DNA of 32,158 nt from a bacterium (lineage in GTDB: Bacteria > CLD3 > SB21), in assembly GCA_013360215.1 (NCBI GenBank), contig JABWCP010000007.1, positions 124,001-156,158 on the forward strand. The letters run 5' to 3'. Positions within the stretch are counted from its first letter, which is position 1. The number at the start of each line of letters is the position of its first letter. Below the pieces are notes generated by a model. The model was given only the letters and a program-made list of their open reading frames with translations. It was not told the DNA's origin and searched no databases. The translations under genes were made by a program, and so were the position numbers. Positions 1 through 23,059 of the stretch are shown piece after piece.

Positions 1-410
1 GCATCCATTACGGCAAGCCACGGCGGATTTTTGTATGAAAAAGCTTCCTGCCGCCCGAGTATGATGCAGTTAACCACAATCAAGGCGATGAACGCGCCAA
101 GTTCTTTATGAATTTTAGGGAAAAAAGCTTCGAGCGATTGATCAACTGCCGTCACAAATGTGGCGATGATCACAATAAAAGTCGTGATGCGTACTTGTTT
201 AGGTATCCAATGACGCAACATGGACACCAAAAGGCATGAGCCTACAAGAACAAATGTAGTGGCCAGTCCCATAGCCAGTCCGTTGATCGCCGAATTGGTA
301 ACGGCGAGGGTAGGGCACATGCCCAGTACGGCAACAAATGTCGGATTTTCTTTCCACAGGCCTTTGATCAATTCGTGTGTTGCGCGTCCGCTTTTTTCAA
401 TCGCGTTCAT
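1..410 (-). CDS. rnfE: Rnf electron transport complex subunit E (5' part; 3' end beyond window)
   Basis: Not in the ORF track. Manual translation from ATG at 410 gives MNAIEKSGRATHELIKGLWKENPTFVAVLGMCPTLAVTNSAINGLAMGLATTFVL...LGAFIALIVVNCIILGRQEAF. LGMCPTLAV and LIVVNCIILGRxE are RnfE/NqrD signature motifs. ATGA overlap with the rnfG stop. Confidence 0.95.
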   Translation of the reverse strand, partial: MNAIEKSGRATHELIKGLWKENPTFVAVLGMCPTLAVTNSAINGLAMGLATTFVLVGSCLLVSMLRHWIPKQVRITTFIVIIATFVTAVDQSLEAFFPKIHKELGAFIALIVVNCIILGRQEAFSYKNPPWLAVMD

Positions 411-1096
411 GGTTGTTTCGGATTATAAGTAAGATTGTTCTGCTGCATGTAATCATCAATGGCGGTTTGCCATCGTGTCATGGCCTTTTGTAAAGCACGA
501 ATAACAGCTTTCGACGATATGGTCGCGCCGGTGATCGTTTCGACCTGATTGGGTTTGGTTTTTTTTCCGGTCTTTGCGGCCTCGATCTCCGGTTCGACCG
601 ACAGCGCTTTAAAATTGGCGACGAAGTTTTTGTCTTTGATGATTTTATCGCCGAGCCCGGGCGTTTCTTTATTTTCGAGCACTTCAAATCCGACGATGAT
701 TTTTCCGTCGGCCTGATACCCGTAAATGATTTTGATCACATCCGCAAAACCGGGTTCCGATGCAGGGATCGCAAAACCGACGACCGATTTTTTTTCATCG
801 TACCCGAGAAATATACGATCGCCCTTTTTGGCTTCTTCGCCCTGCGCTTTTTCAAGACGGTCGTTTTTTAAAACCAATACTTCATAACTGCGGCAACCCG
901 GTACGACGCGATAGATGGCTTCCTGCAGCGCTTCTTCCTTATTCTGCTCGATGATCGGCAGCGTCGAAAAATAAGCGACCACTAAAATCAGTCCTGAAAA
1001 AAATCCGGCCACGGCCAGCGTCAGGATCAAAATCAATGAGCTGGGTTCGGCTTCTTGCGGCGCTACGGGTGTTGCGGGTATATGTTGATGTTCCAT
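407..1096 (-). CDS. rnfG: Rnf complex subunit G, FMN-binding
   Basis: Single N-terminal TM helix, ETPGLG motif, ITGATISS covalent-FMN motif; lies between rnfD and rnfE. Confidence 0.95.
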   Translation of the reverse strand: MEHQHIPATPVAPQEAEPSSLILILTLAVAGFFSGLILVVAYFSTLPIIEQNKEEALQEAIYRVVPGCRSYEVLVLKNDRLEKAQGEEAKKGDRIFLGYDEKKSVVGFAIPASEPGFADVIKIIYGYQADGKIIVGFEVLENKETPGLGDKIIKDKNFVANFKALSVEPEIEAAKTGKKTKPNQVETITGATISSKAVIRALQKAMTRWQTAIDDYMQQNNLTYNPKQP

Positions 1097-1099
1097 AAT

Positions 1100-2059
1100 T
1101 TATTTCGTTCCGTAAACGCGATGGCGCGTAACGCGGTTGATCAACGGCGTTACGGCATTCATCAGCAATATGGCATACATCACGCCCTCCGGTAAACCGC
1201 CGAAGATGCGGATGAGAACTACTAAAATTCCGATTCCGCTTCCGAAAATCCACATGCCGCGCACTGTCATAGGCGACGTCACAGGGTCGGTGGCCATAAA
1301 GACGGCGCCCAGCATCAAACCGCCGGAGAAAAGCATGTGCATCGGTGAAGGATATAAAACCGGGTTGACGATATATAATATACCCGACAGTACGACGGTA
1401 GCAGTCATGATAGAAACCGGGATGTGCCAATTGAAAATTTTTCGATAGGCCAGATATACGCCGGCTAAAAGTATAATCACGCCGCAGGTTTCGCCAAGCG
1501 ACCCGGAGGTATGGCCCAGCATAAGCTGTGATAATTCGGTGGCTTCGTGCTGAAACTTCATACTCGAAAGGGGTGTGGCGCTGGAGATTGCATCTAACGG
1601 TTCGCCGTGAAAAAAAGGCCATGCCAGATTAGTACCCCGCGCGGAAAAATATCGTCCGTCCGGCACCGACCACGTCGTGATCGCCGTGGGAAATGCGGCT
1701 TGCAGAAAAGCACGGCCTACCAATGCAGGATTAAAAATATTTTGTCCGAGCCCGCCCCATATATACTTACCGATCATGATCGCGATCAGTCCGCCGAGAA
1801 ATGCCATCCACATCGGAAAGCCCGGCGGTAAGGTCAATGCCAGCAAAAGTCCGGTCAATAAAGCACTGCCGTCGAAGAGCGATTGGTGACGCGGATTCGA
1901 TCCGGACAAAAGCCATTCGGCAAACATGCATCCGCTCACGGCGGCAACCGACAGTAAAATCACACTCAGTCCGAAAAAATAATACGCGGCTGCCGCGACC
2001 GGCACCAAAGCGTAAATCACTTGACGCATGATCCAAGGCGTCGTCGCTTCGTCATGCAA
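1100..2059 (-). CDS. rnfD: Rnf complex subunit D (true start probably upstream, near 2101)
   Basis: Polytopic membrane protein with GGLGQNIFNPALVGRAFL, SSATPL (FMN-Thr), GSLGET, FMATDPVTSP and EGVMYAILLMN motifs. The conserved N-terminal SPFLH lies in frame upstream of the TTG at 2059. Confidence 0.95.
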   Translation of the reverse strand: MHDEATTPWIMRQVIYALVPVAAAAYYFFGLSVILLSVAAVSGCMFAEWLLSGSNPRHQSLFDGSALLTGLLLALTLPPGFPMWMAFLGGLIAIMIGKYIWGGLGQNIFNPALVGRAFLQAAFPTAITTWSVPDGRYFSARGTNLAWPFFHGEPLDAISSATPLSSMKFQHEATELSQLMLGHTSGSLGETCGVIILLAGVYLAYRKIFNWHIPVSIMTATVVLSGILYIVNPVLYPSPMHMLFSGGLMLGAVFMATDPVTSPMTVRGMWIFGSGIGILVVLIRIFGGLPEGVMYAILLMNAVTPLINRVTRHRVYGTK

Positions 2060-2079
2060 AAACGGCGACGTGGATAGTG

Positions 2080-3438
2080 TTAATTTGGATTGGGTTTCGA
2101 TGACGCTTTCGCCTTTCTTTCACGTATAGCATTTTTGGCAACCCGAAAACTCTGTACTAAAGGAATTCCCGAAGGACAGACAAACGAACACGACGCGCAT
2201 TCAAAACAATCCATCACGTGCTGTTCTTCCAGTTCATCATACAAATCTTTACGTGAGAGCAGCCCCATGAGGGAAGGATTGAGAAACATCGGGCACACAT
2301 CTATGCAGCGCCCGCACTTGATACATTGGTATGTGGAAAGTTCCTGCACTTCGTTATCTGTCAGGACAAGTACGCCCGAAATGCCTTTGGTTACGGGTAC
2401 ATCCAACGTTTTTTGCGCGATGCCCATCATCGGCCCGCCGAGCAAAATTCGAACGGCATCTTGCGTAACGCCGCCGCACCAATCGATCAGATGGCGAATC
2501 GGTGTACCGATCGGCACCATAAGGTTAGCCGGTTTGCGAATAGCCGGACCGGTCACGGTCACTACGCGCTCAATCAGCGGTACGGCATTTTCAAAATATT
2601 GCGCCAGTGCTACCAACGTACCGACATTGGACACAAGTGCGCCGACATCCAGCGGTAATTTGCCCGACGGCACTTCCGTTCCCAGTACCGCTTTGATCAA
2701 CATTTTTTCTGCGCCCTGAGGATATTTGACCCGGAGCGCTACCACTTCATAATCGCAATTTTGTTTTTTGATTTCTTCTTGCAACGCTGCGATCGCATCC
2801 GGTTTGTTATCTTCCACGCCGATTACGACCCGCTGTGCGGGAACAAAATGTCTGAGTATCGTGAGACCATGGACCAAGTCGGCCGCAAACTCTACCATGA
2901 TGCGATGATCGGATGTAAGAAAAGGTTCGCATTCGCAGCCATTGGCAATGATCGTCGTACAGGTTTTTCCTTCGGGGATGGAAAACTTCACATGCGCGGG
3001 AAATCCGGCGCCGCCAAGGCCTACCAAACCGGCGCTCTGTACAGCGGCGATAAATTCTTTGTGCCCCATATTTTTCCAATCCAGCGGTGGTCGCTGCGGT
3101 ACGGTCTGTGCGCTGTACGGATCGGCTTTGATACGAATAGAGTACACCAGCAATCCGTTGGGATGCTCGCCGAGTTCGATACCCGTGACGGTACCCGTGA
3201 CGGGCGCGTGCTGCGCTACGGATACGAAAGCATCCGGCCTCGCGATCACATCGCCGCGCGTGACGTGTTGGCCTTTTTGTACAAGCGGCACCGACGGTGC
3301 GCCCGCATGCTGCGCAACCGGAACGGCGTATTCTTCAACGAAGGGCATGCGTTCGATCGCAAGATCGGCGGTCTGATCTTTATAAGCTTCGGGATGAATC
3401 CCGTGGCGAAACGTCAATCGTGACGACATGTTTTCCAT
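2080..3438 (-). CDS. rnfC: Rnf complex subunit C (NADH/FMN, 2x[4Fe-4S])
   Basis: FRHGIHP, GLVGLGGAGFP, NGCECEPFLTSD, KYPQGAEK, GGPMMG, CIKCGRCIDVCP and CFECASCSFVCP motifs; short form without a long C-terminal extension. Confidence 0.96.
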   Translation of the reverse strand: MENMSSRLTFRHGIHPEAYKDQTADLAIERMPFVEEYAVPVAQHAGAPSVPLVQKGQHVTRGDVIARPDAFVSVAQHAPVTGTVTGIELGEHPNGLLVYSIRIKADPYSAQTVPQRPPLDWKNMGHKEFIAAVQSAGLVGLGGAGFPAHVKFSIPEGKTCTTIIANGCECEPFLTSDHRIMVEFAADLVHGLTILRHFVPAQRVVIGVEDNKPDAIAALQEEIKKQNCDYEVVALRVKYPQGAEKMLIKAVLGTEVPSGKLPLDVGALVSNVGTLVALAQYFENAVPLIERVVTVTGPAIRKPANLMVPIGTPIRHLIDWCGGVTQDAVRILLGGPMMGIAQKTLDVPVTKGISGVLVLTDNEVQELSTYQCIKCGRCIDVCPMFLNPSLMGLLSRKDLYDELEEQHVMDCFECASCSFVCPSGIPLVQSFRVAKNAIRERKAKASSKPNPN

Positions 3439-6400
3439 TATTGTTTTCCGCTCGCTTGATATCCGGAAAGCGCTAATAACTTATCCCGCAACTTGATGCG
3501 AGTGGATTCCAGATGATTTGATTCCTGTTGTTTCAGTTTGGTCTCATATTCACTACGCAGTGTATCGATGGCCGAATTATGTTTTTCGGACCATTCGGCA
3601 TCCCAATGCGCACGTAATTTGACCGGGTGGGACGAAAGAAGGCCGGCCATTTCGCGAAGTTGTAACCACGCATCATAGACGACCGCACACGTTTCAGCCA
3701 AGATGCCCGATAGTAAATAGAACACGCCTTCGCGTTCATAATACGCGGTATGTTTAGCACGCTCTTCAGCGGAAGCCAACCATGTACGAATATCCAAACT
3801 TCCGGAAGAGGGTTTGCTTACCGGTGAAAAATGCGATTTCCACATCGGCTGAAGCCAGGCCCAGTCGGCAAAGGTCACGTTCTTTTCGGTTACAAAATCC
3901 AATTGATAATCGGGATTGTGATCAAGGTGTAATAATTCAGCCGCTAATTTTTTCTTCGCGTCGGGGATGTAGCGCAACAAAGGAAATACACGGGATTCTA
4001 CGGACATGGCGTACATGTCTTGCAGTTTGAATTTTTCTATCATCATCGGTGTATGCACGCACATCATGGCCGGCGTTTGACTGCGCAGACAAGCTGTAAT
4101 ACTGCGGTACATGTCGGCCGGATAGCCGGGGGATACATGAGCCCACGCTGTTTGACGTTGCGCAAAAAGCATGGCGTTCAATCCCATACGATCGTACATA
4201 TTTTGTTTGCCACCGGTGGCGGGCTCAGTGACGATCCATTTGATCGGCAAGCCGCTATTCATAAGCGCGATGATGTCACCCGCCGGCATGGCATCCAATA
4301 CGGTCGCATCCGTCACTAAAAGCAAAGGCGGTGTAAGATTCTTTTCTTCTTCCGTAAGATCATTCCAAGTGATGGCCGCAATTTGTATATCGTGTTGGGA
4401 CGGCAAATACGCATTTTGTAATTCGAGATCGGCACGCCGTAAAAGTTTGATATTATCAATGATGTGGCGCATTTGCCCGAGGCCGATACCGCGGACGAAG
4501 TCCGGAGCGATGGCTTCTGAAAAAACCATGACCGGCACGAGGAACGGATTATCCGGAAATTGCCGTGCCCATGCCAGAGTATCATTGCCGCTGATTACCG
4601 CCGAATACCGCGCACGTCCGATACCCGTAGGTCCTTTTGTCAAAAGCCAATACAGTTGTTTCAAGTCACGCAGAAGATACACGGCGCGTTCGATCCACAC
4701 CGTATCGACGACGCCAAATCGTTGCGAGGAACCAAGTTTTCCGATCAGGGCATCAAGCGACATGCGTTCCGTGCCGTGTTCGGAAACGGCGGCCAGTAGA
4801 TGTTCGGTACTTTGTGTCGGTAAAGCGTCGCGCAAAATATTTTGCAATTTATCCGTAAGATTTTGGATGCGCTTTTCTATCGCGGACGTGTGCGTAAGCA
4901 TACGTGCCTGTGCCGTCGCTTCGACAGCGGCCGTGATCAGGTGCAACGCGATTTTTTCCGCCGGTTGGTCCGTGCGTCGGTTGCCGAGTTGCGTCATATA
5001 ATAATGACGGCTCAGAAATAAGGCGGCCAGCGGATTGTAACTTTCGTTATCTAAATATTGTTTGACCGTGGCTCCGGGCGTATCCGGCAGCGCTTCCCAA
5101 ATCCGGTACGAAGCTTGTAACTGCGCTTCCGACGCCGGATTCACGGGCTGCATGCTAAGGGCTTGTTCTGAACACGATGCAGCACAAATGCCGCATCCAT
5201 TGCAAGCATGCGGATCTACGGCCAATGAAAAAATCAAGCCGCTGCCTTTAGCATACTGTTCCGGTGTTTTGAAAAATGTTTTGGTAATCACAGCCGGAAG
5301 CGGGGCAAGATATTGAGCGACGTCGTTCGCTTGCGCGATCAAATTTTCTTTTTTGGATGAATCCATTTTCATCTGCACGGCCAGTTTTTCGGCGGCCACA
5401 GGAAGCAGGTCGCATAACGATGGGTTGTTCTCTGATACCATCGGATGCAACAGTTTGGCGAGATTTTTGATTACCGGCGGAGTCATTTCTGTCAGCGATT
5501 TTCCGGCCCGTATCGTTTGTTCGACTGCCGACTGTACGAGCGTCTCTGTCGAAAGAGCTACCATCGGCAGAGCGGATTCAGGGCAATATACGGCACATTG
5601 GCCGCAACCGGTGCATGACTCCGATTTTAACACCGGATACATCGCCCGTTGTGCTGTGGCATTGTGAAACGCCGACGTCGCCGAGGGTATGACCGGTAAG
5701 GCATGAAACGGATCGGCCGTCATGGCTTTAGTTTGACCGGACTCTGTAAAAAATCCGACACGATCATAAAATGAAGCCACACGTGAATACGGTGCGCCAC
5801 GATCTTCGTAACGGCGTACGATACCGGGAATGTCAGGCGAAGTCGCAATCATTGTTTTGGCTGATTCGTCGAGTCCTATCGAACGCGCATTCAAATCCGG
5901 AAATTCGCGATGCAGGTTTTGAAAATGAATTTGTTGTTTCGGATACGAGGACTTGGTTCCGGTAAAATCAAGTTGTATAAAAAACTGACGGCGTCCGCCC
6001 GTGCGCATGTGTTCATAAATATTCGCGACTGTTTTTTCCGGCATGTCATAAACGTCCGTGCCAAATTGACCGGAAAACAAAACAGGTTTTTCACGTTCAT
6101 TGATTGACGGATATTCCGGGTACGGCGGCGATTTTTTTTGCCCGGCATTTTCGCCGGCTTTTTGTAATGCCGATATCGTTTCGCGATATAACGGTCCCTC
6201 CTGAACAAATCCTCCGGACAGAGGTTCAAGTACGGCCACATTTTTTTTACCACTGATGGCCTCGCAAACTGCGGTACCGGGAAAAGGCTGCCACACGCGG
6301 ATATTCGCTACACCGGCTTTTATTTTGGCTATTTTGAGTTGTTCTGCGCCGGACCGAAGTGCGGCAATGACAGCGCCTCCGGAGAGGATGAGCTGTTCGG

Positions 6401-7220
6401 CTTTTTCTGAACCTAAAGTTTCGACGCTTTTATATGGACGACCAAACTGTGTTTGAAATTGGTCCCACGCGGCATCGATGATCGGTGCGGCCGCTTCGGA
6501 GAAATACACGCCGCCGGCCGCCGCTTCAAACGCATGCATCAGACCGGATTTATCGGCGCCCAACATAACCGGATAGTCGCTATGAAACCAGTTGGTGATA
6601 CGCCGCCGCATTTTTCCGAAAATTATTTTTTGTCCGGATGTCGGTGTTTCGATCATATCATCGGGATCGCCAAGATAAGTGCGTAAGGCTTCTTCATTTG
6701 GAAAAGTAACATGGCCCGCCGATGAGTTTGTCATATCGGCTAAAACCATTACCGGAATCATCGTCAGTTCGGCTATACGATGCGCCGCTATGATCATATC
6801 GGCCAATTCCTGATGGTTTGCCGCTATCAATTGTATCCATCCGGCTTCACGGGCCAAACGACGTACTCGTGTATCGCAAAACGATCCTTCTCCGTTTTCA
6901 TTTTGTTCACGTTCAAATGCCACGAGTACTACGGGCAAATGACGACGAACGCAGGCGTGCATCATTTCTGTATCTTGAAGGAGCGCCTGAAGTGTAACTG
7001 TTGCAGAGGCGCGAATACCCGAAGAAGCCAATCCCATCGCCTGCCCAAGATTGCGGGCCGATACGTGCAGTAGCGGTCTTCCGAAAATATTTTGCCCGCT
7101 TTCGTCGTGACCGGAAGCCGTCTCCGTCAAAGCCGATGCGATGATATCAAAACACGCCGCCGCCGTCGTGGTGTTGGTCAAACCGGCGTAAAGAGTATAA
7201 TTGTTCTTATTGTGCATCAT
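3438..7220 (-). CDS. Pyruvate:ferredoxin oxidoreductase (NifJ/PFOR)-derived protein with two [4Fe-4S] motifs, catalytic motifs degenerate
   Basis: PFOR-like segments (AMGLASSGIRAS, GWIQLIAANHQELADMIIAAHRIAE, NIRVWQPFP, AEKIALHL, SVESRVFPLLRYIP) plus CTGCGQCAVYCP and CNGCGICAASC. No YPITP, no CxGC, no GDG..N TPP motif. Start overlaps the rnfB stop (ATGA) and stop overlaps the rnfC start (TAATG). Confidence 0.8.
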   Translation of the reverse strand: MMHNKNNYTLYAGLTNTTTAAACFDIIASALTETASGHDESGQNIFGRPLLHVSARNLGQAMGLASSGIRASATVTLQALLQDTEMMHACVRRHLPVVLVAFEREQNENGEGSFCDTRVRRLAREAGWIQLIAANHQELADMIIAAHRIAELTMIPVMVLADMTNSSAGHVTFPNEEALRTYLGDPDDMIETPTSGQKIIFGKMRRRITNWFHSDYPVMLGADKSGLMHAFEAAAGGVYFSEAAAPIIDAAWDQFQTQFGRPYKSVETLGSEKAEQLILSGGAVIAALRSGAEQLKIAKIKAGVANIRVWQPFPGTAVCEAISGKKNVAVLEPLSGGFVQEGPLYRETISALQKAGENAGQKKSPPYPEYPSINEREKPVLFSGQFGTDVYDMPEKTVANIYEHMRTGGRRQFFIQLDFTGTKSSYPKQQIHFQNLHREFPDLNARSIGLDESAKTMIATSPDIPGIVRRYEDRGAPYSRVASFYDRVGFFTESGQTKAMTADPFHALPVIPSATSAFHNATAQRAMYPVLKSESCTGCGQCAVYCPESALPMVALSTETLVQSAVEQTIRAGKSLTEMTPPVIKNLAKLLHPMVSENNPSLCDLLPVAAEKLAVQMKMDSSKKENLIAQANDVAQYLAPLPAVITKTFFKTPEQYAKGSGLIFSLAVDPHACNGCGICAASCSEQALSMQPVNPASEAQLQASYRIWEALPDTPGATVKQYLDNESYNPLAALFLSRHYYMTQLGNRRTDQPAEKIALHLITAAVEATAQARMLTHTSAIEKRIQNLTDKLQNILRDALPTQSTEHLLAAVSEHGTERMSLDALIGKLGSSQRFGVVDTVWIERAVYLLRDLKQLYWLLTKGPTGIGRARYSAVISGNDTLAWARQFPDNPFLVPVMVFSEAIAPDFVRGIGLGQMRHIIDNIKLLRRADLELQNAYLPSQHDIQIAAITWNDLTEEEKNLTPPLLLVTDATVLDAMPAGDIIALMNSGLPIKWIVTEPATGGKQNMYDRMGLNAMLFAQRQTAWAHVSPGYPADMYRSITACLRSQTPAMMCVHTPMMIEKFKLQDMYAMSVESRVFPLLRYIPDAKKKLAAELLHLDHNPDYQLDFVTEKNVTFADWAWLQPMWKSHFSPVSKPSSGSLDIRTWLASAEERAKHTAYYEREGVFYLLSGILAETCAVVYDAWLQLREMAGLLSSHPVKLRAHWDAEWSEKHNSAIDTLRSEYETKLKQQESNHLESTRIKLRDKLLALSGYQASGKQ

Positions 7221-8089
7221 AGTTCCTCAGGTAAAACTTCCACACGCCCTATCGGTAGCGGCGTTGCAGGCGCTTTTTCAAATTGACGGCCTTCCACCCA
7301 CACGATGGCTCGTGTCGGGCAACGGCGCGTCGCGTCGGGGCGCGCTAATACATTTTGACTATAATCAATCACGGGCAAATTATTCTTCATCTGGATCAAA
7401 CCCGGCGCTGCATCGGCCACACACCGGGAGCACGCATTGCAAGCTACCGAACACCGTTCCAATGCGGCATCGCCCTCAAGCAGTGAACGGCACTGTACGA
7501 TCAGTTTCTGACTGACGGGCATGATGGTAAAAAGTTTTTTGGGGCATACATCCACACAATCGTTGCACGCCGTGCACTGGATGGGATCGACGACCGGTAG
7601 ACCGTCGCTATTCATCGTGATCGCGTCAAAATCGCAGACCGATTCGCAATCTCCGAGACCTAAACATCCCCATACACAATCTTTCGTTCCGCCGGTAACC
7701 ATCGCTACACTGCGGCAGGTGCGTTTTCCATAATAGTCGGCCTGGTTGTGGCTTTCTTGTTTTCCACCGGCACATAAAAGACGTGCTACGCGTTTTTCTT
7801 CAAAGCCGGCGGCCACACCGAGGAATTCCGCGATTGATGCTACCGCCGAAGGTGAACTGACGGTACACTTGCCCGGTTTATTGATGCCGCCGACGACACT
7901 TTCTGCAAATGCACGGCAACCCGGGCGACCGCATGCGCCGCAGTTGGAACCCGGTAACATAGATTCGACCTGATCAATGCGCGGATCTTCTTCGACACGC
8001 AGCTTTTTATACGCGAACGCCAGTACCGATGCGAAAAGCAGCCCGAGCCCGACCATGATCGTTACAGCTATGATGATTTCGGAAAACAC
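7217..8089 (-). CDS. rnfB: Rnf complex subunit B (polyferredoxin)
   Basis: GTG start, N-terminal membrane anchor, LPGSNCGACGRPGC FeS domain, CVWGCLGLGDCESVCDFDAI, CTACNDCVDVCP and further Cys motifs. Confidence 0.94.
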   Translation of the reverse strand: MFSEIIIAVTIMVGLGLLFASVLAFAYKKLRVEEDPRIDQVESMLPGSNCGACGRPGCRAFAESVVGGINKPGKCTVSSPSAVASIAEFLGVAAGFEEKRVARLLCAGGKQESHNQADYYGKRTCRSVAMVTGGTKDCVWGCLGLGDCESVCDFDAITMNSDGLPVVDPIQCTACNDCVDVCPKKLFTIMPVSQKLIVQCRSLLEGDAALERCSVACNACSRCVADAAPGLIQMKNNLPVIDYSQNVLARPDATRRCPTRAIVWVEGRQFEKAPATPLPIGRVEVLPEEL

Positions 8090-8118
8090 GATAAATTCTT
8101 CTTACGTAACAAAAGTTG

Positions 8119-10650: not shown

Positions 10651-10660
10651 AAAATTTCAA

Positions 10661-10679
10661 ACCGCAAATTTGTCTAATT
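10661..10679. repeat. 19-bp direct repeat, left copy (duplicated korB 3' end)
   Basis: ACCGCAAATTTGTCTAATT, identical to 14303-14321. On the minus strand it falls within ...IISRKLDKFAV*, compared with the korB end ...AIHKELDKFAV*. Confidence 0.9.
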
Positions 10680-10718
10680 TTCTGCTAATGATTTTTTCTT
10701 GTTGTTTAACACTTGAAT

Positions 10719-13415
10719 TTATTTTATGAGGGTCATTTTTTTTGACTGAACGAAATTACCAGCTTGTATTCTATAAATATAAATTCCGCTAGCAACCTGC
10801 ATACCTACATCATCTTTACCATCCCAAAAGGAATCATAATATCCTGCTTCAAGAAAGTGACCAAACACCGTACGCACCTCTTGCCCTTGCATATTATAAA
10901 TTTTAAGAGTCACGTTAGACGCCCCGGGTATTCCAAATGAAATAGTTGTCGAAGGGTTGAAAGGATTAGGATAATTTTGGTCTAATTCAAACTTTGAAGG
11001 AGTGAAGTTTACTTTTGTTTTTGATTTTGCTAAGCAAGGTAACGCGTTGGAGTTATTTGCAATAGCCAAAGGTTCATCGCATCCACCGCCGCCGCCTGAA
11101 CATACAGAAACTGGTGTGCTTGTTGAAATGGTTTGTGAGCCGCTGGACATGGTTAATGTCAAAGTAAAATCATAACTAACCTGTAAAGAAATAGATGCAC
11201 TTGTACCAAGAATAGCACCATTGCGAGTCCATTGATACGAATTCGTTCCAGTACCGCCGGAAACAACAGCCGAGAAACTCCCTATCTGACCTTTGTTTAC
11301 ACAGGAAGGGCCTTCGATATAAGTAGACAAAGGAAGGTAATACTCACCTGAGTATTCAACTTGTGGTCTTGAATTCCCCGCTGTATTAAACGCAACTACT
11401 ACATAACTTTGCTTACCAACTAGATAAGTACTGTCAGTCCAAGACGTCACATTTGTACCAACCGACCCGATTAAGCTGTAGCCATTTAGAGTACCATCCC
11501 ATACTGAATTTGTGGCTTTTCTATAAATACGAAACCCTTGTTCTTGATTCTCTATTATATCAAACCAATATATACCATAAGTATATTCGCTCGGGCAAGT
11601 ATTATCATTCCAACTCAAAGTACGCGAATTAGGAGAGCCTGATACTGATAGTGAAGTTGGGGTTGACGGGAGTGCAGAACCGGATTTCAGGATCAATGAA
11701 TTATATAATGCATTTATGGATGGGTGATACTTTGATTCCGTTGAATTAATTAGTGCATTCCTATATGCCTCAATGTGAGTGTCCCCAATTAATTGGCCTA
11801 AGACATTGTAACGACTGATAAATTTACTAATTAAAAACGCAGCAGACAATGATATATCATCATTATCCCCTGTGTAATTGGGTGCTCTTAGTCCATTACC
11901 ATCCCAAAGACTATAAAAAAAGCAAGCAACAGCGCCCTCGACTTTTTTATTGTTTCTATCTGGAAATAGTATTCCTTGAGAATAATCCATAAATTGATAA
12001 GTCGGTGACGGTCCTGCTTCTACATCGTAACTGCCCCGTTCAGGAAGTGATGGCTGTTCGACTGAATACCAGTACATGTGGGTGGCAGCAGCATAAAACT
12101 CAGCCCAGCCTTCATTCCAGGCTAATGTATTGTTTGTCTCTTTTGAGAACCAGTGTGAACTGGAATAATTGGCATCAGCTATAAAGCCGACACGGTCATA
12201 TTCTATAAAATGCCCATATTCATGATAAGCGGTTTCCGTCCTTGGCGATACATCAAAAACAATGCGCGGTGCATTGATGTTTTGACCGCCGCAATTTCCT
12301 GGTTGACAGAAAAACGCGCCATCAACATTCCTAAAGTAATAACGAACCTGATGTGGCGTATAATTTAACTGAGCTATGCTAAATTGGCGAGCTCTGTATA
12401 AATGACGAAGAGCGCTACCTTGTTTATCATTAGTTTCGAGATCACGAGCAGCAATGACCGACGTAGTCGCACCGGAGATGTCAATCTTGACAGAATTTGA
12501 AATAAGTGGTACCATTTTAGCGCCGTTTCCAAGATCGGCATCATAACCTGCTGCGTTCGCGTTGTTTGCGTAAACACGTATTCTTTGAGAATAGTAGTTG
12601 GCCGGCTGTGAACTTGCAAACGTAAAGCTGAAATAGTAGTAGCCATTGTTATCACTGATATCGTAGTCAACGTGCAGCGTGTTTCCTCCATAATATGGCG
12701 TATAACCGGTTGTTAGATTATCATCATAGTCCCAATCCAGATAGACTCCGACCGCTGGAATTCCTTTCATGCCATAAGGGTAATAAGGATGGTTGTATTT
12801 TATTTGCCCGGAAATCTGAACGGTGATATAATATGTTGATTCGGTCATCTCTTGGTTTTGAATTTTTTGACCAATACCTCCGTTTTTAAATGTGGTATCC
12901 ATTGGAATATACGAAGCAGTAGCTTTCTGTTCATTCTCAGACCTATTAACTTCTATAGGCCATTGGGTATACTTGATACTTGGCTTAGTATCATAATTTG
13001 TAACTTCGCCATTTAAGATTTCAATGTAGATTTCAAAACTCTGATATTCAGAGAGTCTATTTTTTTCAGATTCATCATTAGCCGGTTTGAAATGTAATTT
13101 GATTTGAAGGGTGAAATAGCCGTCCTCTGCAAAACTGAATTCCCATTTCTTAATAAATTGTTCAAATTTGTTTTTTCGACCTTCACTTGATTTCATGATG
13201 CCGCTTTTCAAAATAAAAGATTCAGGTATACTAAAATCGACGCCTACGTCACCGCTTGCTTCCATATTGAGCGACAGGTCAATCGAAGCTTGTTTTTTGT
13301 TATGAGAAAGTTTCAAATCGTTAAGTTTAAATGGGCTTTTAGTGTCTTCAGATGCGTAGGTTAGTTTGAATCCAAATAATGCAATAAGAAAAATTAATTT
13401 CATAATTCGGGACAT
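10719..13415 (-). CDS. Secreted putative zinc metallopeptidase (HEXXH) with FN3/Ig-like domains and C-terminal FlgD-Ig/T9SS-type sorting domain
   Basis: Signal peptide; AYHEYGHF followed by WNEGWAEFY (gluzincin-type third ligand); FN3-like PSTPTSLSV..LSWNDN..GFRIYRK..YVVVAFNTAGNS; C-terminal LDQNYPNPFNPSTTI..WDGKDD.G..VASGIYIYR..KKMTLIK; AAGGAG SD. Confidence 0.8.
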   Translation of the reverse strand: MSRIMKLIFLIALFGFKLTYASEDTKSPFKLNDLKLSHNKKQASIDLSLNMEASGDVGVDFSIPESFILKSGIMKSSEGRKNKFEQFIKKWEFSFAEDGYFTLQIKLHFKPANDESEKNRLSEYQSFEIYIEILNGEVTNYDTKPSIKYTQWPIEVNRSENEQKATASYIPMDTTFKNGGIGQKIQNQEMTESTYYITVQISGQIKYNHPYYPYGMKGIPAVGVYLDWDYDDNLTTGYTPYYGGNTLHVDYDISDNNGYYYFSFTFASSQPANYYSQRIRVYANNANAAGYDADLGNGAKMVPLISNSVKIDISGATTSVIAARDLETNDKQGSALRHLYRARQFSIAQLNYTPHQVRYYFRNVDGAFFCQPGNCGGQNINAPRIVFDVSPRTETAYHEYGHFIEYDRVGFIADANYSSSHWFSKETNNTLAWNEGWAEFYAAATHMYWYSVEQPSLPERGSYDVEAGPSPTYQFMDYSQGILFPDRNNKKVEGAVACFFYSLWDGNGLRAPNYTGDNDDISLSAAFLISKFISRYNVLGQLIGDTHIEAYRNALINSTESKYHPSINALYNSLILKSGSALPSTPTSLSVSGSPNSRTLSWNDNTCPSEYTYGIYWFDIIENQEQGFRIYRKATNSVWDGTLNGYSLIGSVGTNVTSWTDSTYLVGKQSYVVVAFNTAGNSRPQVEYSGEYYLPLSTYIEGPSCVNKGQIGSFSAVVSGGTGTNSYQWTRNGAILGTSASISLQVSYDFTLTLTMSSGSQTISTSTPVSVCSGGGGGCDEPLAIANNSNALPCLAKSKTKVNFTPSKFELDQNYPNPFNPSTTISFGIPGASNVTLKIYNMQGQEVRTVFGHFLEAGYYDSFWDGKDDVGMQVASGIYIYRIQAGNFVQSKKMTLIK

Positions 13416-13432
13416 AATGAATCTCCTTAATC

Positions 13433-13945
13433 CTATTTATATGGTTTAACAAGACAATCACTAGGCACTCCGTCATCGACAGGTCCAAACTTTGAACGGG
13501 TTTCCACCGAATTGACGAGATAGTATTGCAGACTGTCTATAACATACAGCGAATCCATTCGGAATAGAAAACATGCCAAGATTCGTAAATTGGTAGCATC
13601 GCCTAGGTCTATGATTTTCCACATCTGTTCATATACAGAATCCTTTTCAAAGACAACTTCTCCGTACGTAATATGACTTACAGAGTCGGAACCCAAAGTA
13701 TCTAAGAACGGGGAAGTAATAATAATACTTCCTGCTGAAAGCATAATTATTCCTTTTCCATCAAAAGCGGGCTTGATGCGCGTTTTAACTGTAATTGTGT
13801 CGCCAACTTTAATGCTATCGACATTGCAGTTTATTTGTAGGCTCCCGGTTTCAAACACACTAGGACCTGAATAGGGTTCCGGTTCATCTTTATGATTACA
13901 TGAAATAATCGCATAAGAAAATAAGAAAAGAATTAGCGTTTTCAT
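13433..13945 (-). CDS. Putative lipoprotein, unknown function
   Basis: MKTLILFLFSYAIISC lipoprotein-type signal, purine-rich SD, 17 bp from the next gene on the same strand. Confidence 0.75.
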   Translation of the reverse strand: MKTLILFLFSYAIISCNHKDEPEPYSGPSVFETGSLQINCNVDSIKVGDTITVKTRIKPAFDGKGIIMLSAGSIIITSPFLDTLGSDSVSHITYGEVVFEKDSVYEQMWKIIDLGDATNLRILACFLFRMDSLYVIDSLQYYLVNSVETRSKFGPVDDGVPSDCLVKPYK

Positions 13946-13957
13946 TTTCCCCCTTTT

Positions 13958-14218
13958 CTATTGGTTGATTGATTCGGTTTTTTTTGTATTACTCCATTTC
14001 ATATCTCGTTGTAGCGCTTTGGCCGAGGTTTGATTTTGCTCATTGGGAGGTACGTGATACCAATCTAAGTTCTCTACTCTTGCTGATTCAGCAGTGCTAT
14101 CTGGAAAGCCCCCACAATCCAAACAATCTTCTTCTGTACATGAGAAGTTTGGTGAAAATACGAACAAAAATGAAAGCAAAACAAAAAAACATAGCATAAA
14201 ACCTTTATACGTCATCAT
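13958..14218 (-). CDS. Small putative lipoprotein/exported Cys-containing protein
   Basis: Hydrophobic N-terminus then FSCTEEDCLDCGG; tightly packed (12 bp) and co-oriented with the 170-aa lipoprotein gene. Confidence 0.5.
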   Translation of the reverse strand: MMTYKGFMLCFFVLLSFLFVFSPNFSCTEEDCLDCGGFPDSTAESARVENLDWYHVPPNEQNQTSAKALQRDMKWSNTKKTESINQ

Positions 14219-14298
14219 AAAATTTACTCCAAATTTTCTTACGCTATTTATATCGAATCAAATATATTCTAACTGAAGAATTTGAAATAACATTTCAT

Positions 14299-15252
14299 TT
14301 ACACCGCAAATTTGTCTAATTCCTTGTGGATCGCGCGCATTTTGTCCTCCGGTGAAATGCCGAGATTGTGCGCACCGTAATCATCATACCGTTCGGCGTT
14401 CTTATTCTGATACAAAAGGCCGATCACTTCGCGGTCATGATTGCCCGCCAAAGTTCTGGCCTGATTGATATCCGACGGATCATGCTCGACCACGTTTTTA
14501 TATATTTTTGTGATCGCGGGGTCAACTTGAATTCCGTTTTTATGCGTCAAAAGTGTGATCGCATCGGGACTGCTCATGGTTGTCTGAAAAAGATCTTTTT
14601 GGAAAACCGGGCAACGTTGTAAAACGCGGATAAACGACAAACCGGGATGATTGTAACCGGCTTCGATCGTAGCGTACAGATGCGCCGGATTCCAATCTAC
14701 CGTCTGTGCGACGAAGGAAACATTGGAGACGCCGAGCGTGGTTTGTATCGGATTGATCGGAGGTAATTGCGATCCGCGCGGTGAGGTATTGGAAACTGTA
14801 CCTTTATTGGAAGTCGGTGAAGCTTGTCCTTTGGTCAATCCATAAATTTCGTTGTCCAGAAGCAGCACGGTGATATTCATATTATAGCGAATGGCGTGAA
14901 TCCAATGCGCCGTACCGATGGAGCAACAATCGCCGTCGCCGGTGGCGACAAACACATGCAGATCCGGACGGCGAAATTTGATACCATTGGCTACGGGAAG
15001 TGCACGGCCGTGCAAACCGTGAAATCCGTAGGTTTTCATATAATGCGGCAGACGGCTCGAACAGCCGATGCCGGACACAAATACTGTTTTTTCGGGCGGT
15101 AATTGTTTTTCGCTGCACAGTCTTTGTACAGCGGTCAAAATGCCGTGATCGCCGCATCCCGGACACCAGCGTGCCGTTGCGCTTTCATAGTCGGCTAACG
15201 TGTAATAATCCTCAGGTATATCGAGGACGCAATCGGATTTTAATCCAAACAC
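14299..15252 (-). CDS. korB: 2-oxoacid:ferredoxin oxidoreductase beta subunit (TPP-binding); substrate not determinable
   Basis: WCPGCGD, SGIGCSSR, HGLHGRALP, GDGD...LDNEIYGLTKGQASPT and QRCP motifs; GTG start with AAGGAG SD. Confidence 0.93.
   Translation of the reverse strand: MFGLKSDCVLDIPEDYYTLADYESATARWCPGCGDHGILTAVQRLCSEKQLPPEKTVFVSGIGCSSRLPHYMKTYGFHGLHGRALPVANGIKFRRPDLHVFVATGDGDCCSIGTAHWIHAIRYNMNITVLLLDNEIYGLTKGQASPTSNKGTVSNTSPRGSQLPPINPIQTTLGVSNVSFVAQTVDWNPAHLYATIEAGYNHPGLSFIRVLQRCPVFQKDLFQTTMSSPDAITLLTHKNGIQVDPAITKIYKNVVEHDPSDINQARTLAGNHDREVIGLLYQNKNAERYDDYGAHNLGISPEDKMRAIHKELDKFAV
14303..14321. repeat. 19-bp direct repeat, right copy (within the korB 3' end)
   Basis: ACCGCAAATTTGTCTAATT, identical to 10661-10679. 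Confidence 0.9.
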
Positions 15253-15295
15253 GGGAGTGCTCCTTTATATGATTTTATTATTATAGTTGACATGG

Positions 15296-17203
15296 TCAGG
15301 CCATAACCGGTTCGTCGTTTTCGACCAGGGATAATTCCTTTTTGATCATATCCAAGATCATGCCCGGACGTATCGGTTGGCCGTGCACATTGGAGAAACA
15401 ATCCACATCGGTCAATGTGTGAGCGCGCAAGTACCAGGCCAGTTGCGACATCCGGCGGTTTTCCGGCGTGATCAGCGGATCATTCAGATTATCCGAATAG
15501 TTGATTTCCACCGTCATGACTTTTTTGAACCGTTTGAAAATATCTTTGAGACCCGGTTCTATCGGCGAGAGGAAACGCAGATGCAGAGACGATACGCGAC
15601 CGCCCAATGCACGGGCACGATGGACGGCTTCTTCGATCGCACCGAGGGTCGAACCCCAGCCGACGATCAGCAGATCACCTTCGGGATCGCCGTTGACGAC
15701 CGGCGGTTTGAGTGATTGGAGAAATGCGGCCAGCTTACGGCTGCGCATATCGCAACCGACCTGATTGGTTGCCGCTTCGTACGCGACTTTGCTGCGCTGG
15801 TCATGAGCCAATCCGGTGAGAGTGTACATCCCGTTTTTCTGGCCGGGTATCGGGCGGCGGCTGAGGCCAGTTTCTTCATCCCAATCAAACGCCGGAACGC
15901 CTTCGCGCCACGGGCTTTGATCAATCGGCGGAGCAAACCATTCCTGATTGATTTGCGGACGCGGGTACGGCTGTACGCCGGTTGCGAGATTGGCATCGCT
16001 GAGCAAAATGACCGGCATGCGGAAAGCCTCCGCAAGACGCCGGGCGAGAATGACGAAGTGAAAACATTCTTCGATCGTTGCAGCGGCTAAAACTATTTTT
16101 GGGGCATCGCCGGGTTGGCCGTATAGCGCATAGAGTAAATCACCTTGTTCGACTTTGGTCGGTAAACCGGTCGAAGGTCCGCCGCGCTGGACATTGACGA
16201 TCACGAGGGGAACTTCCGCCATGACCGCAAGGCCGATGAATTCGGTTTTGAGCGCCATGCCGGGTCCGGAGGTGATCGTGATGGCCGTTTTACCGGCATA
16301 CGATGCGCCGATGGCAAAACCGATTGCGGCGATTTCATCTTCCGCTTGATGGATCAGCCCGCCCGCTGCTTCAAAACATTCAGCCAAATGATGCGATGCC
16401 GATGTCGCCGGGGTGATGGGATACATGGAACACAATTCGATGCCTGCGGCCAATGTGCCGAGACTGATCGCTTCATTACCATTCATCACGACAAATTGTT
16501 CATCGGTCGCCATCGCCGGTATGTCATATTGAAATTTGAGATTTTGTTCGGCCCAGGCGTATCCCGCACGGAACAGTTTGAGGTTGACGTCCACGACGTC
16601 TTGCTTTTTTTTGCGGAAAGTATGACGAATCTGATTTTCGGCTTTGGCCGTATCGCGCTGATAGATGCAGCACAACATGCCGAAAACCCACATGTTTTTG
16701 CCCTTGCGCGGATCAGCGATATGCTTCATGGATTCTTGTTCGATCGGTATCTCGATCACGTCATATCCGCGCGATTTCAGATCGTTGAGACCTTCGGTAT
16801 ATTCGTCCTGTATTTTTTTGACATCATGTTTGGCCCACTTGTTATCCAGAAGGATTTTTGTACCCGGGCGAAACGCTTTTTGATCAATGCGCCCATAAAG
16901 CACCTGTTCATTCAACGCAACGACCAGGTCGGCTTCGTCGCCCATATTGGTTATTTTTTTGGAGCCAATGCGGATACGAATACCCGACGCACCGGCTTTG
17001 GAACGTGCCGGCGGTTGGATTTCGGCGGGAATGATCTCGACGGTCCAAACCCCATTGCCCATTTTGGCGGACAGCATACCGAGCGATTGACCGGCCTTTT
17101 GTGCGCCTTCACCGGAATCGCTGACAATTTCTACAATATGTTCGTGAATTAAGGTTTTTTGGACTGAGGCATGATTTCCCCCGGAAGAAGTGGATTCTTT
17201 CAT
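15296..17203 (-). CDS. korA: 2-oxoacid:ferredoxin oxidoreductase alpha subunit (gamma-alpha fusion)
   Basis: SDSGEGAQ, IPAEI, GNEA, MYPITPATS, QAEDEIAA, TSGPGMALKTE, QRGGPSTGLPTKVEQGDL and GWGST motifs. Confidence 0.94.
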   Translation of the reverse strand: MKESTSSGGNHASVQKTLIHEHIVEIVSDSGEGAQKAGQSLGMLSAKMGNGVWTVEIIPAEIQPPARSKAGASGIRIRIGSKKITNMGDEADLVVALNEQVLYGRIDQKAFRPGTKILLDNKWAKHDVKKIQDEYTEGLNDLKSRGYDVIEIPIEQESMKHIADPRKGKNMWVFGMLCCIYQRDTAKAENQIRHTFRKKKQDVVDVNLKLFRAGYAWAEQNLKFQYDIPAMATDEQFVVMNGNEAISLGTLAAGIELCSMYPITPATSASHHLAECFEAAGGLIHQAEDEIAAIGFAIGASYAGKTAITITSGPGMALKTEFIGLAVMAEVPLVIVNVQRGGPSTGLPTKVEQGDLLYALYGQPGDAPKIVLAAATIEECFHFVILARRLAEAFRMPVILLSDANLATGVQPYPRPQINQEWFAPPIDQSPWREGVPAFDWDEETGLSRRPIPGQKNGMYTLTGLAHDQRSKVAYEAATNQVGCDMRSRKLAAFLQSLKPPVVNGDPEGDLLIVGWGSTLGAIEEAVHRARALGGRVSSLHLRFLSPIEPGLKDIFKRFKKVMTVEINYSDNLNDPLITPENRRMSQLAWYLRAHTLTDVDCFSNVHGQPIRPGMILDMIKKELSLVENDEPVMA

Positions 17204-17725
17204 GATTTCCTCGTTGATATCGGTTAATAAAGGACTTAAAAAGACTATATCATTACTTTTGTCAGGATAAATGTCGTTTCGGAATTCTCATGAAACAATG
17301 ACATTAGTCTTGAATCAGCATGACCTTTATAAGGCGAAGTATCAATAGAAAGAAGGGATGAACCGCGTATAATGGAAAAAAATACCCATAACCAATGATG
17401 CGAATATTGGAGTTCCAAAAACATAGTTTAGATTTCTCTTTGCGGCTTTGCGAGAGGTTATTACTGATAATTATTTCGGTAGGTACAAGACACTTCGGTA
17501 CGTCGCTTTGCTCCTACTTGATATCTGATAGCGTGCGCCGAGTTGAGACGCTTATAGTAACAGAATACATATTCTCGCCAAGACGCCAAGTACCCAGAGT
17601 ACAATCGAAATATGGTTATTGCGGCGTTGTACAAAAACATGTACACATCAAGACGTCAGATGCGCTAAGAATACGCCCACGCCAAAAACACTTTATCCAT
17701 TCTTTGGCGGGTCTTGCTTTTGTCT

Positions 17726-17747
17726 CGTTTATTTAATTAAATAAACG
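17726..17747. promoter_or_regulatory. Perfect 22-bp palindrome, candidate operator
   Basis: CGTTTATTTAATTAAATAAACG is its own reverse complement; it lies about 70 bp upstream of the antiporter ATG in the divergent korA/antiporter spacer. Confidence 0.55.
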
Positions 17748-17818
17748 CACCTGCCTGTACGATTACTTTATATAGTTGAAAAAATACGTCCGTAAAATAA
17801 TAAAAGGAGTCCCATCCA

Positions 17819-23054: not shown

Positions 23055-23059
23055 TATCT

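Follow-up and report, generated by a model that had tools for sequence, protein, structure and literature searches.

A widespread Rnf operon with KorAB genes and two predicted pseudoenzymes derived from pyruvate:ferredoxin oxidoreductase

Why should an operon for the Rnf complex, which occupies a central coupling position in anaerobic bioenergetics and, on the current view, trades electrons with free ferredoxin, also carry genes for a 2-oxoacid:ferredoxin oxidoreductase (OFOR) and for two very large relatives of pyruvate:ferredoxin oxidoreductase (PFOR)? The question is raised by a 32,158-nt stretch of bacterial DNA (the window, by which the whole of this stretch is meant: JABWCP010000007.1, positions 124,001 to 156,158; GCA_013360215.1; CLD3; SB21). 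Genes were called from a six-frame list of open reading frames (ORFs) and from Pfam and NCBIfam scans, scores being given throughout as bits vs the family cut-off, and these place on the minus strand the order korA-korB-[3.6-kb islet]-p843-rnfB-p1260-rnfC-rnfD-rnfG-rnfE, p843 and p1260 being the two large proteins. A sequence-only reading of this DNA had claimed the same co-oriented order together with overlapping codons, and both can be read directly: all the genes it named lie on this strand where it had placed them, and the overlaps are ATGA at rnfB/p1260, TAATG at p1260/rnfC, where start and stop share one base, and ATGA at rnfG/rnfE. The operon is a real, widespread and uncharacterised variant of Rnf plus OFOR with pseudoenzyme adaptors, and it suggests a hard-wired electron path from 2-oxoacid to NAD+. 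By their sequences, p1260 and p843 appear to be non-catalytic descendants of a long PFOR of ~1700 amino acids (aa) that is intact at the same operon position in other phyla. We consider it probable (roughly 0.6) that they serve as non-catalytic relay or scaffold subunits coupling KorAB to Rnf, the net result being an ion-translocating 2-oxoacid:NAD+ oxidoreductase that works without free ferredoxin.

What kind of protein is p843, whose database copies begin at Met8 and thus count 836 rather than 843 aa? Profile comparison with hhalign aligns its residues 351-843 with residues 1166-1723 of the long PFOR (probability 100, E 9e-94) and its residues 45-198 with long-PFOR residues 745-918, i.e. before and inside the ferredoxin domain, the cysteines of which are gone (probability 89.5, E 2e-6). 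The AlphaFold2 model, built with 47 homologues (mean predicted local distance difference test, pLDDT, 82.2; predicted template modelling score 0.71), is disordered at residues 1-42, at 449-458, where the thiamine diphosphate (ThDP) loop is deleted, and at 721-759. Foldseek ranks PFORs on top for this model (E about 2e-7), and VIA-align lays p843 residues 109-661 on residues 787-1170 of the M. thermoacetica PFOR 6CIN with Z 22.9 and a root-mean-square deviation (rmsd) of 5.1 A over 293 residues; the body reaches Z 20.6 with the D. africanus PFOR and Z 16-20.5 with the beta subunits 5EXE_F, 9BT4_C, 8YS5_C, 5B46_B and 6N2N_B (oxalate oxidoreductase, M. acetivorans PFOR, H. pylori Oor, Sulfolobus OFOR and Magnetococcus 2-oxoglutarate:ferredoxin oxidoreductase, OGOR). 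The possibility that p843 shares no ancestry with PFOR beyond its ferredoxin tail was considered and is ruled out by the hhalign matches and by the VIA-align fold match. The body has the PP-domain fold but neither the ThDP motif (GDG) nor the cluster cysteines. The C-terminal 84 residues, by contrast, match D. africanus ferredoxin I both by profile (1DAX, E 1.4e-5) and by fold (1FXR, TM score 0.83, rmsd 1.9 A) and contain the CxxCxxC...CP ligands of a single-cluster ferredoxin; Cys772, 775, 778 and 814 are the only invariant cysteines of p843 (47/47 homologues). In the 23/47 homologues amenable to parsing, the end of the long helix and the first cluster cysteine are 48-71 residues apart, with A/E/P/T/V abundant among these. 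The model thus depicts p843 as a cofactor-less look-alike of a beta subunit that would bear a ferredoxin-I-like [4Fe-4S] domain on a flexible tether of ~40 residues.

The other large protein, p1260, for which the fold assignment relies on sequence alignment, begins with domains I and II; domain III is absent, and ferredoxin domain V, a degenerate domain VI and a C-terminal extension follow. Its residues 63-443 match domains I-II of an intact metagenomic PFOR of 1723 aa (31% identity), its residues 432-1234 match the ferredoxin domain, domain VI and C-terminal extension of the same protein (P0006; 27% identity), and ~210 residues corresponding to domain III are missing, in keeping with the lack of a Pfam POR match; longer orthologues (1440-1530 aa) have ~190 extra residues at this position that Pfam does not recognise. 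An alignment of 30 sequences, comprising the canonical PFOR of the same genome, 18 p1260-type proteins from loci arranged like the window and 11 intact long PFORs, separates the two sorts cleanly. The GDG...NTGGQ motif that binds ThDP/Mg and the CxxC...C ligands of the proximal cluster are both lost in 18/18 p1260-type proteins and both kept in 11/11 long PFORs as well as in the canonical PFOR, whereas the two CxxCxxCxxxC motifs of domain V are present in 30/30. In p1260 itself, TDA stands in place of GDG and the NTGGQ stretch is deleted, and its eight domain-V cysteines are invariant in 27/27 orthologues. It lacks the ThDP motif, the full set of three clusters, the full domain set and the family score of a PFOR, and is most simply described as a PFOR pseudoenzyme that keeps a 2x[4Fe-4S] module. 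Compared with homodimeric PFOR (D. africanus 1B0P, M. thermoacetica 6CIN; TIGR02176), p1260 is collinear with domains I, II, V and VI and the p843 body falls on domain VI (Z 20-23), but both proteins differ in having no ThDP motif, proximal cluster or domain III and in carrying a long helical C-terminal extension, to which p843 adds the tethered ferredoxin.

These alignments, profile matches and the p843 fold bear out the PFOR origin that the sequence-only reading had proposed for both proteins. Its wording, 'very large Fe-S proteins', needs qualifying: large they are, and by conserved cysteines they would hold one cluster in p843 and two in p1260. Since the ligands of ThDP and of the proximal cluster are all gone, neither of the two can be a second oxidoreductase, and because the long PFOR is here split into two dead paralogues, KorAB is left as the only catalytic oxidoreductase of the operon.

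KorAB, in turn, looks complete. KorA has the domain order III-I-II of an alpha subunit, KorB the ThDP/Mg motif (GDGD at residue 105) and four cluster cysteines (Cys30, Cys33, Cys64 and Cys214), and no delta subunit accompanies them; without such a delta or ferredoxin subunit, the enzyme needs an external ferredoxin. NCBIfam assigns the pair to subfamily-level models only, the equivalog models staying far under their cut-offs, so that KorAB is best taken as a predicted intact two-subunit OFOR of a dedicated subfamily that would use 2-oxoglutarate or another 2-oxoacid. The tree agrees with a dedicated subfamily: 37/37 operon-linked KorB proteins form one clade (support 100/100), and a long branch separates it from two ordinary KorB copies, namely the second copy of this genome (contig C37) and one from another genome (G002), and members of the operon-type clade always precede a p843-type protein or stand in a long-PFOR/Rnf operon. 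Among known enzymes, the two-subunit OFOR/OGOR of Sulfolobus tokodaii (5B46-48) and Magnetococcus marinus (6N2N) share with it the III-I-II alpha subunit and the single-cluster beta subunit, whose fold is also that of the p843 body, but the KorAB of the window belongs to a separate clade; the KorAB of Thauera is likewise of the two-subunit type. We know of no OFOR with a pseudo-beta subunit and a tethered ferredoxin. The second KorAB pair of the genome lies on another contig (C37:8825-11393), with a KorA that scores 662 bits on TIGR03710, above the operon KorA, and a further OFOR gene set is found on the contig of the operon, 13 kb past rnfA (C40:108759-111241).

The Rnf part is no less complete. 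RnfB has one hydrophobic segment, residues 1-20, which would form an N-terminal membrane helix, followed by FeS and ferredoxin-type domains, and RnfC combines Complex1_51K, RnfC_N and SLBB with two CxxCxxCxxxC motifs for two [4Fe-4S] clusters. The operon runs on past the window edge on the same contig, where the full-length rnfE (TIGR01948 232 vs 213) is followed by rnfA as the next ORF (242 vs 229) and by a gene for an ApbE-like flavin transferase. All six subunit genes (A, B, C, D, G, E) hence stand in one cluster, each above its NCBIfam cut-off, and this RnfC is the only one of the genome above the family cut-off. The Rnf of the operon thus appears gene-complete, with ferredoxin:NAD+ activity and ion transport predicted. 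It resembles the canonical Rnf of acetogens, clostridia and Azotobacter in its six subunits, in the RnfB helix and ferredoxin domains and in the FMN- and NADH-binding RnfC, with an ApbE gene beside the operon here, but differs in that two extra genes of 843 and 1260 codons flank rnfB and that KorAB heads the operon. To our knowledge, known Rnf complexes draw their electrons from free ferredoxin or flavodoxin and contain no PFOR-like subunit. The features of the operon are collected in the table.

Table. Positions in the window of the operon genes, of the parts of p843 and p1260, and of the islet (residue numbers where so stated; scores in bits vs cut-off)
Feature	Position	Strand	Evidence or remark
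korA, alpha subunit (domains III-I-II)	15296-17203	-	Pfam POR, POR_N, PFOR_II; TIGR03710 522 vs 483
korB, beta subunit	14299-15252	-	Pfam TPP_enzyme_C, PFO_beta_C
Islet	~10679-14302	-	
Direct repeats flanking the islet (18 bp)	14303-14320 (korB 3' end), 10661-10678	-	perfect repeat
170-aa ORF in islet	13433-13945	-	
898-aa protein in islet, with sorting tail of the type IX secretion system (T9SS)	10719-13415	-	Por_Secre_tail match
p843	8119-10650	-	Pfam: Fer4_13 at C-terminus only
p843, putative pseudo-beta body (PFOR domain-VI fold)	residues about 90-662		predicted structure and hhalign
p843, long helix	residues 665-718		
p843, putative flexible tether	8374-8490, residues 721-759	-	pLDDT <50; low-complexity, A/E/P/T/V-rich
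p843, predicted tethered single-[4Fe-4S] ferredoxin domain	8122-8373, residues 760-843	-	Fer4_13 (PF13370) 35 vs 24.5
rnfB	7217-8089	-	TIGR01944 79 vs 69; PF04060 and Fer4 families
p1260	3438-7220	-	POR_N, PFOR_II, Fer4; TIGR02176 99 vs 911
p1260, ferredoxin domain V	5151-5633	-	two CxxCxxCxxxC motifs, Cys536-546 and Cys673-683
rnfC	2080-3438	-	TIGR01945 520 vs 246; NADH/FMN module
rnfD	1100-2059	-	TIGR01946 324 vs 207
rnfG	407-1096	-	TIGR01947 108 vs 102
rnfE, 5' part	3-410	-	PF02508; gene runs off window edge

Is this arrangement an accident of one genome? A scan of one genome per species gave 245 places that encode a relative of p843, intact long PFORs with the same tail included, and locus types were assigned on the best 80 of them. 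In type A (33/80 loci), the order is korAB-p843-rnfB-p1260-rnfCDGEA as in the window. Missing linkage of the two large proteins to rnf in other genomes was among the findings by which the sequence-only reading would have been refuted, and the survey decides this point in its favour. In type A, korB lies upstream of p843 in 30 of these 33, two of the others having no room and one showing none within 1.4 kb. Carriers are the family of the window, Saprospiraceae/Lewinellaceae/Phaeodactylibacter, and single metagenome-assembled genomes (MAGs) labelled Planctomycetota, Competibacteraceae, Myxococcales, Rhodothermales and KSB1. Within the family of the window, the operon proteins were found in 10 of 14 other genomes at ~40% identity and, wherever contigs allow, in the same order korA-korB-p843-rnfB-p1260-rnfC-D-G-E-A; the four genomes without them have no RnfC above cut-off either, and a genome of a neighbouring family encodes an ordinary RnfC and no p843. 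A search for a cultured type-A host by way of the Phaeodactylibacter-type p843 returned 27 loci, all of them from MAGs.

Type B (28/80; Gemmatimonadota, Acidobacteriota, Planctomycetota and others) reads korA-korB-341-aa protein-rnfB-intact ~1700-aa PFOR-rnfCDGEA, the PFOR carrying the same extension plus ferredoxin tail. Of the 28 loci, 17 show korB and the others are too short upstream, except one. That one is a complete Gemmatimonadota MAG chromosome (L076), where a 569-aa ORF at 9851-11560 resembles the C-terminal half of p843 and precedes rnfC; neither rnfB nor a long-PFOR N-terminus nor korAB was seen in the 10 kb upstream, a stretch whose N bases were left unchecked. Presence of the intact long PFOR always goes with the conserved 341-aa protein (e.g. 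L068:4374-5399) between korB and rnfB; it has no Pfam match and is weakly similar to p843 residues 257-430 (hhalign probability 75). Loci of this form share their PFOR-family gene between rnfB and rnfC with the rnf2 operon of the Solemya velum gill symbiont, and those read here add the same C-terminal extension and ferredoxin tail and the upstream korAB; there the PFOR is intact, with ~1700 aa, ThDP motif, three clusters and domain III, whereas here it is split into two dead paralogues.

In type C (16/80), an nfnA-like and an nfnB-like gene precede korA, korB and a p843-like gene, with no Rnf. korB is upstream of the p843-like gene in 16/16 and the nfn-like pair is present in 15/16, the remaining locus (L086) having no upstream room (the loci are L053-L056, L058, L062, L063, L067, L071, L072, L083, L085, L086, L088, L096 and L102). 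They come from Alpha-, Beta- and Gammaproteobacteria, Verrucomicrobiae, Chloroflexia and Pyrinomonadaceae and include the cultured Photobacterium lipolyticum DSM 16190. In a typical module (L056:4341-12184), the NfnA-like protein has 301 aa (DHODB_Fe-S_bind), the NfnB/GltD-like one 504 aa and the p843-like one ~730 aa. Between Verrucomicrobiae, Chloroflexia, Acidobacteriota and three Proteobacteria classes, the Nfn-like pair retains 66-77% identity, and the module, perhaps a soluble 2-oxoacid:NAD(P)+ system, may have been spread by gene transfer. Azoarcus has a three-subunit 2-oxoglutarate:NADP+ oxidoreductase that invites comparison with such NfnAB/GltD-type modules beside OFORs; the 16 type-C loci are alike in this respect, but the window differs in having the membrane pump Rnf and a second relic, p1260. 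The last three of the 80 loci are incomplete and unclassifiable.

The family is large. A profile search of 1.84 billion representatives gave 3234 p843-profile matches, 1616 of these representatives (50% identity clusters, including intact long PFORs that share the tail) matching at E<=1e-30, so that the 4 and 3 relatives returned by a word-index search for the two proteins are a strong under-count. The databases call these proteins 'ferredoxin', '4Fe-4S binding protein', 'hypothetical protein' or '2-oxoacid:acceptor oxidoreductase family protein', and the protein atlas clusters for p843 are unnamed or 'ferredoxin family' only, with no structure entry for it. Full-text literature searches, which did not extend to supplementary gene tables, turned up no description of the operon. 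The related form with an intact PFOR is already on record: the S. velum study notes its rnf2 operon rnfB2-PFOR-rnfC2DGEA in one sentence, with no experiment attached to it there (PMC4287430). In an Endoriftia study, a 'PFOR-like' gene and a dimeric korAB respond together (PMC11636981), and passages of this and three further sources concern other KorAB or Rnf contexts (PMC11636981, PMC4914600, PMC9973337, 10.64898/2026.01.22.701106).

How did two pseudoenzymes come to stand where one enzyme stands elsewhere? In a tree of 49 rows on the shared domain-VI/extension region, the p1260 proteins form one clade (99/96) and the p843 proteins of types A and C another (100/99), while the intact long PFORs group loosely with canonical PFOR; the type-C p843 clade (100/97) adjoins the type-A p843 of a Rhodothermales MAG. 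The p843, p1260 and KorB trees show the same subclades, i.e. co-inheritance. On the simplest history, a long PFOR with a tethered ferredoxin would have stood inside an Rnf operon and then been duplicated, one copy losing its tail and cofactors to become p1260 and the other losing domains I-III and cofactors, and keeping the tail, to become p843, with KorAB taking over catalysis; a korAB-p843 pair would later have been joined to a soluble NfnAB-like module. Beside this, eight of the best 150 of the 3234 p843-profile matches are 1236-1565 aa long with an extra N-terminal part (P0046, P0074, P0083, P0134, P0142, P0152, P0183 and P0190); a weak N-terminal PFOR_II match is seen in two of the eight and only the C-terminal Fer4_13 in the other six, and they may be full-length dead PFORs, between long PFOR and p843.

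Both proteins are evidently kept. Comparison of three genomes within a single genus gives ratios of nonsynonymous to synonymous substitution rates (dN/dS) of 0.14 (p843) and 0.17 (p1260), with 0.00-0.02 for KorA/B and 0.03-0.06 for RnfB/C. All domains of the two stay below 0.3, domains I-II of p1260 at 0.17-0.18, and within p843 the pseudo-beta body (0.07-0.10) and the ferredoxin domain (0.05-0.10) are lowest and the tether (0.21-0.29) is highest. By these values p843 and p1260 are working proteins under purifying selection, far less constrained than the catalytic subunits.

The analysis establishes which genes the operon contains, which motifs were lost or retained, the folds, and the fact that synteny is conserved and that the proteins are co-inherited and under purifying selection; in the following scheme, the binding partners, the electron path and its direction, the ion and the substrate are inferred. 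The p843 body would sit on KorAB as a pseudo-beta subunit, and its tethered ferredoxin would take electrons from the KorB cluster and swing to the next acceptor. From there electrons would pass to RnfB either directly or via the clusters of p1260, which would be located at the RnfB/RnfC side and lengthen the cluster chain, and Rnf would reduce NAD+ at RnfC while exporting Na+ or H+. Alternatively, Rnf might run in reverse and drive reductive carboxylation. The third partner beside KorAB and the p843-type protein is always an NAD(P)-linked ferredoxin oxidoreductase, be it Rnf or NfnAB-like. The p843-type gene always stands beside korB, even where an NfnAB-like pair replaces Rnf, as would be expected of an adaptor that connects KorAB with a module reducing NAD(P)+, and since korAB and the p843-like gene follow the NfnA/NfnB-like pair in 16 loci, 2-oxoacid oxidation is tied there to NAD(P)+ reduction. 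Were the scheme true, an Rnf with a dedicated 2-oxoacid oxidoreductase and a pseudoenzyme-borne relay would be a new coupling of a tricarboxylic acid cycle reaction to ion translocation, and would show plainly how enzymes can be reused as scaffolds for electron transfer. The sequence-only reading had suggested that two PFOR-derived proteins may wire KorAB to Rnf; conserved linkage and PFOR ancestry have stood, so that its interpretation is supported in part, and the wiring keeps the conditional standing given above.

Several observations weigh against this coupling. The relics evolve 5-10 times faster than the catalytic subunits. The p843-type protein occurs in 16 NfnAB-linked loci without Rnf or p1260, which makes it a partner of KorAB in the first place, and its link with Rnf may be no more than functional. 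KorB scores 245 bits on TIGR02177, a little under the cut-off of 262. The islet puts 3.6 kb between korAB and p843-rnf, so that the two parts may be transcribed apart here. As the genome also encodes the E1 of 2-oxoglutarate dehydrogenase (OGDH; 1070 bits), a canonical PFOR of 1206 aa, the second KorAB and the further OFOR, the operon is not the sole 2-oxoacid route and is specialised. Finally, a search for RnfB fused to larger proteins found RnfB-GltD-like fusions only and none that is PFOR-like, which is weak evidence. The fusions themselves (P0192-P0200; 676-705 aa; Desulfobacula toluolica and other Desulfobacterales) join RnfB to a GltD/NfnB-like flavoprotein and, by their sequences, would be a different means of linking RnfB with an NAD(P)H module.

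How tightly, then, might the parts be joined? In the strongest version of the coupling proposed here, KorAB, p843, p1260 and RnfABCDGE would make up one stable, membrane-bound, ion-pumping 2-oxoglutarate:NAD+ oxidoreductase, pseudo-PFOR scaffolds and a swinging tethered ferredoxin replacing the soluble pool; this is possible, but we would hold it only tentatively. At the ordinary OGDH step, ~200 mV are lost. A single machine would let facultative or aerobic sludge heterotrophs and members of many phyla conserve the energy that OGDH wastes, or drive reductive carboxylation from NADH and the ion gradient, and the NfnAB-linked version would be its soluble counterpart.

The rival that survives best, although we think it unlikely, is functional coupling without a supercomplex, in which p843 and p1260 would be soluble 'giant ferredoxins' diffusing between KorAB and RnfB and their co-encoding would merely match expression. 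Neither protein has a predicted membrane helix, whereas RnfB has one; p843-like proteins serve a soluble NfnAB-like module in the type-C loci; the fusion search gave no RnfB-PFOR; and the intact long PFORs with the same tail could be free enzymes with a built-in ferredoxin. A tether, however, is of little use unless the body is anchored to a partner, and a 60-aa ferredoxin would suffice for a diffusing carrier, whereas ~750 cofactor-less residues of p843 and ~1000 residues of p1260 outside domain V are under purifying selection; the position between rnfB and rnfC, with its overlapping codons, is moreover kept across phyla.

Perhaps the relics carry no electrons at all and act as assembly, stabilising or oxygen-protection factors, as shields of the KorB or RnfB clusters in organisms of aerated habitats, or as regulators of KorAB. 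Oxygen tolerance of the D. africanus PFOR has been connected with its C-terminal arm, carriers are seen from activated sludge and similar habitats, the genome has OGDH, and the pseudo-beta fold of p843 could cap KorAB. Yet the cluster cysteines are invariant both in the p843 ferredoxin domain (47/47) and in p1260 domain V (27/27), the partner module is always NAD(P)-linked, and the p843 ferredoxin domain has one of the two lowest dN/dS values of its protein, which indicates a redox function; we therefore judge a non-carrier role quite improbable. Still less credit is due to the idea that p1260 keeps some ThDP-independent catalysis or ligand binding in domains I-II (e.g. CoA/2-oxoacid sensing) and so feeds or gates Rnf. 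These domains are retained under the constraint noted above and hold several invariant residues, but the position of what we take to be the ThDP-activating glutamate in domain I of 1B0P is not conserved (phmmer alignment), the GDG/N motif and the proximal cluster are gone, and domain III is deleted here and Pfam-undetectable in relatives. That the two genes are remnants of a PFOR duplication, in decay and without a function today, is hardly credible, since, although they are the fastest-evolving genes of the operon (38-45% identity within the family vs 75-86% for Kor and Rnf proteins), their reading frames are intact across at least six phylum-level labels, their dN/dS is 0.14-0.17, their cluster ligands are invariant and the p843 profile finds its many representatives.

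What of the islet between korB and p843? Its flanking repeat ATTAGACAAATTTGCGGT occurs twice as a perfect 18-bp match (0/100 shuffles gave two matches), its GC content is 38.3% vs 50.9% in the rest of the operon, and it is single-copy in the genome. At the korB/p843 junction of the relatives' loci examined it is not present and p843 follows korB directly, with 12-86 bases between tblastn matches in the family of the window. An islet-free allele exists too: in a sludge RNA library of another study (X19), whose contigs are 95-99% like the window, one contig joins 10660 to 14303 and skips exactly the 3642 bases between the repeats. Given the direct repeats and this existing allele, the islet is secondary, a recent strain-level insertion into an older korB-p843 junction that lies outside the system. 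C-terminal domains with 30-57% identity to the sorting tail of its 898-aa protein are encoded at about 35 sites of the genome, which points to a large T9SS secretome.

As to transcription, the gene 5' of korA is divergent, on the other strand, and korA is therefore the first gene of the operon. A sigma-70 promoter scan of the window was no better than chance (31 vs 26.6 in shuffles); terminator-like sites are commoner than in shuffles (37 vs 22.3), yet they are scattered on both strands and also within genes, so that no operon boundary can be drawn from them. The window sequence is present in activated-sludge metagenomes of several studies, and two RNA libraries of one sample hold 0.56 and 0.49 of its sampled words. 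Contigs from these libraries that are identical to the window cover 28/30 (X15) and 21/30 (X16) bins of positions 1-17800, islet included; as assembled contigs from a sample that is perhaps the source of the window and may contain DNA, they are a hint of expression only, and bins without cover (e.g. 13663-14256) carry no evidential weight. One RNA contig, 3087-3450, reaches just 12 bases into p1260 and fails to span the p1260/rnfC junction.

The right half of the window encodes a LytTR-type two-component pair, ThiC, a Na/Ca exchanger and a 918-aa FG-GAP/ASPIC protein with a T9SS-like tail (a second coordinate set for genes of this half is 21966-23794), and an rve-type integrase/transposase ORF lies at its right end (31451-32116).

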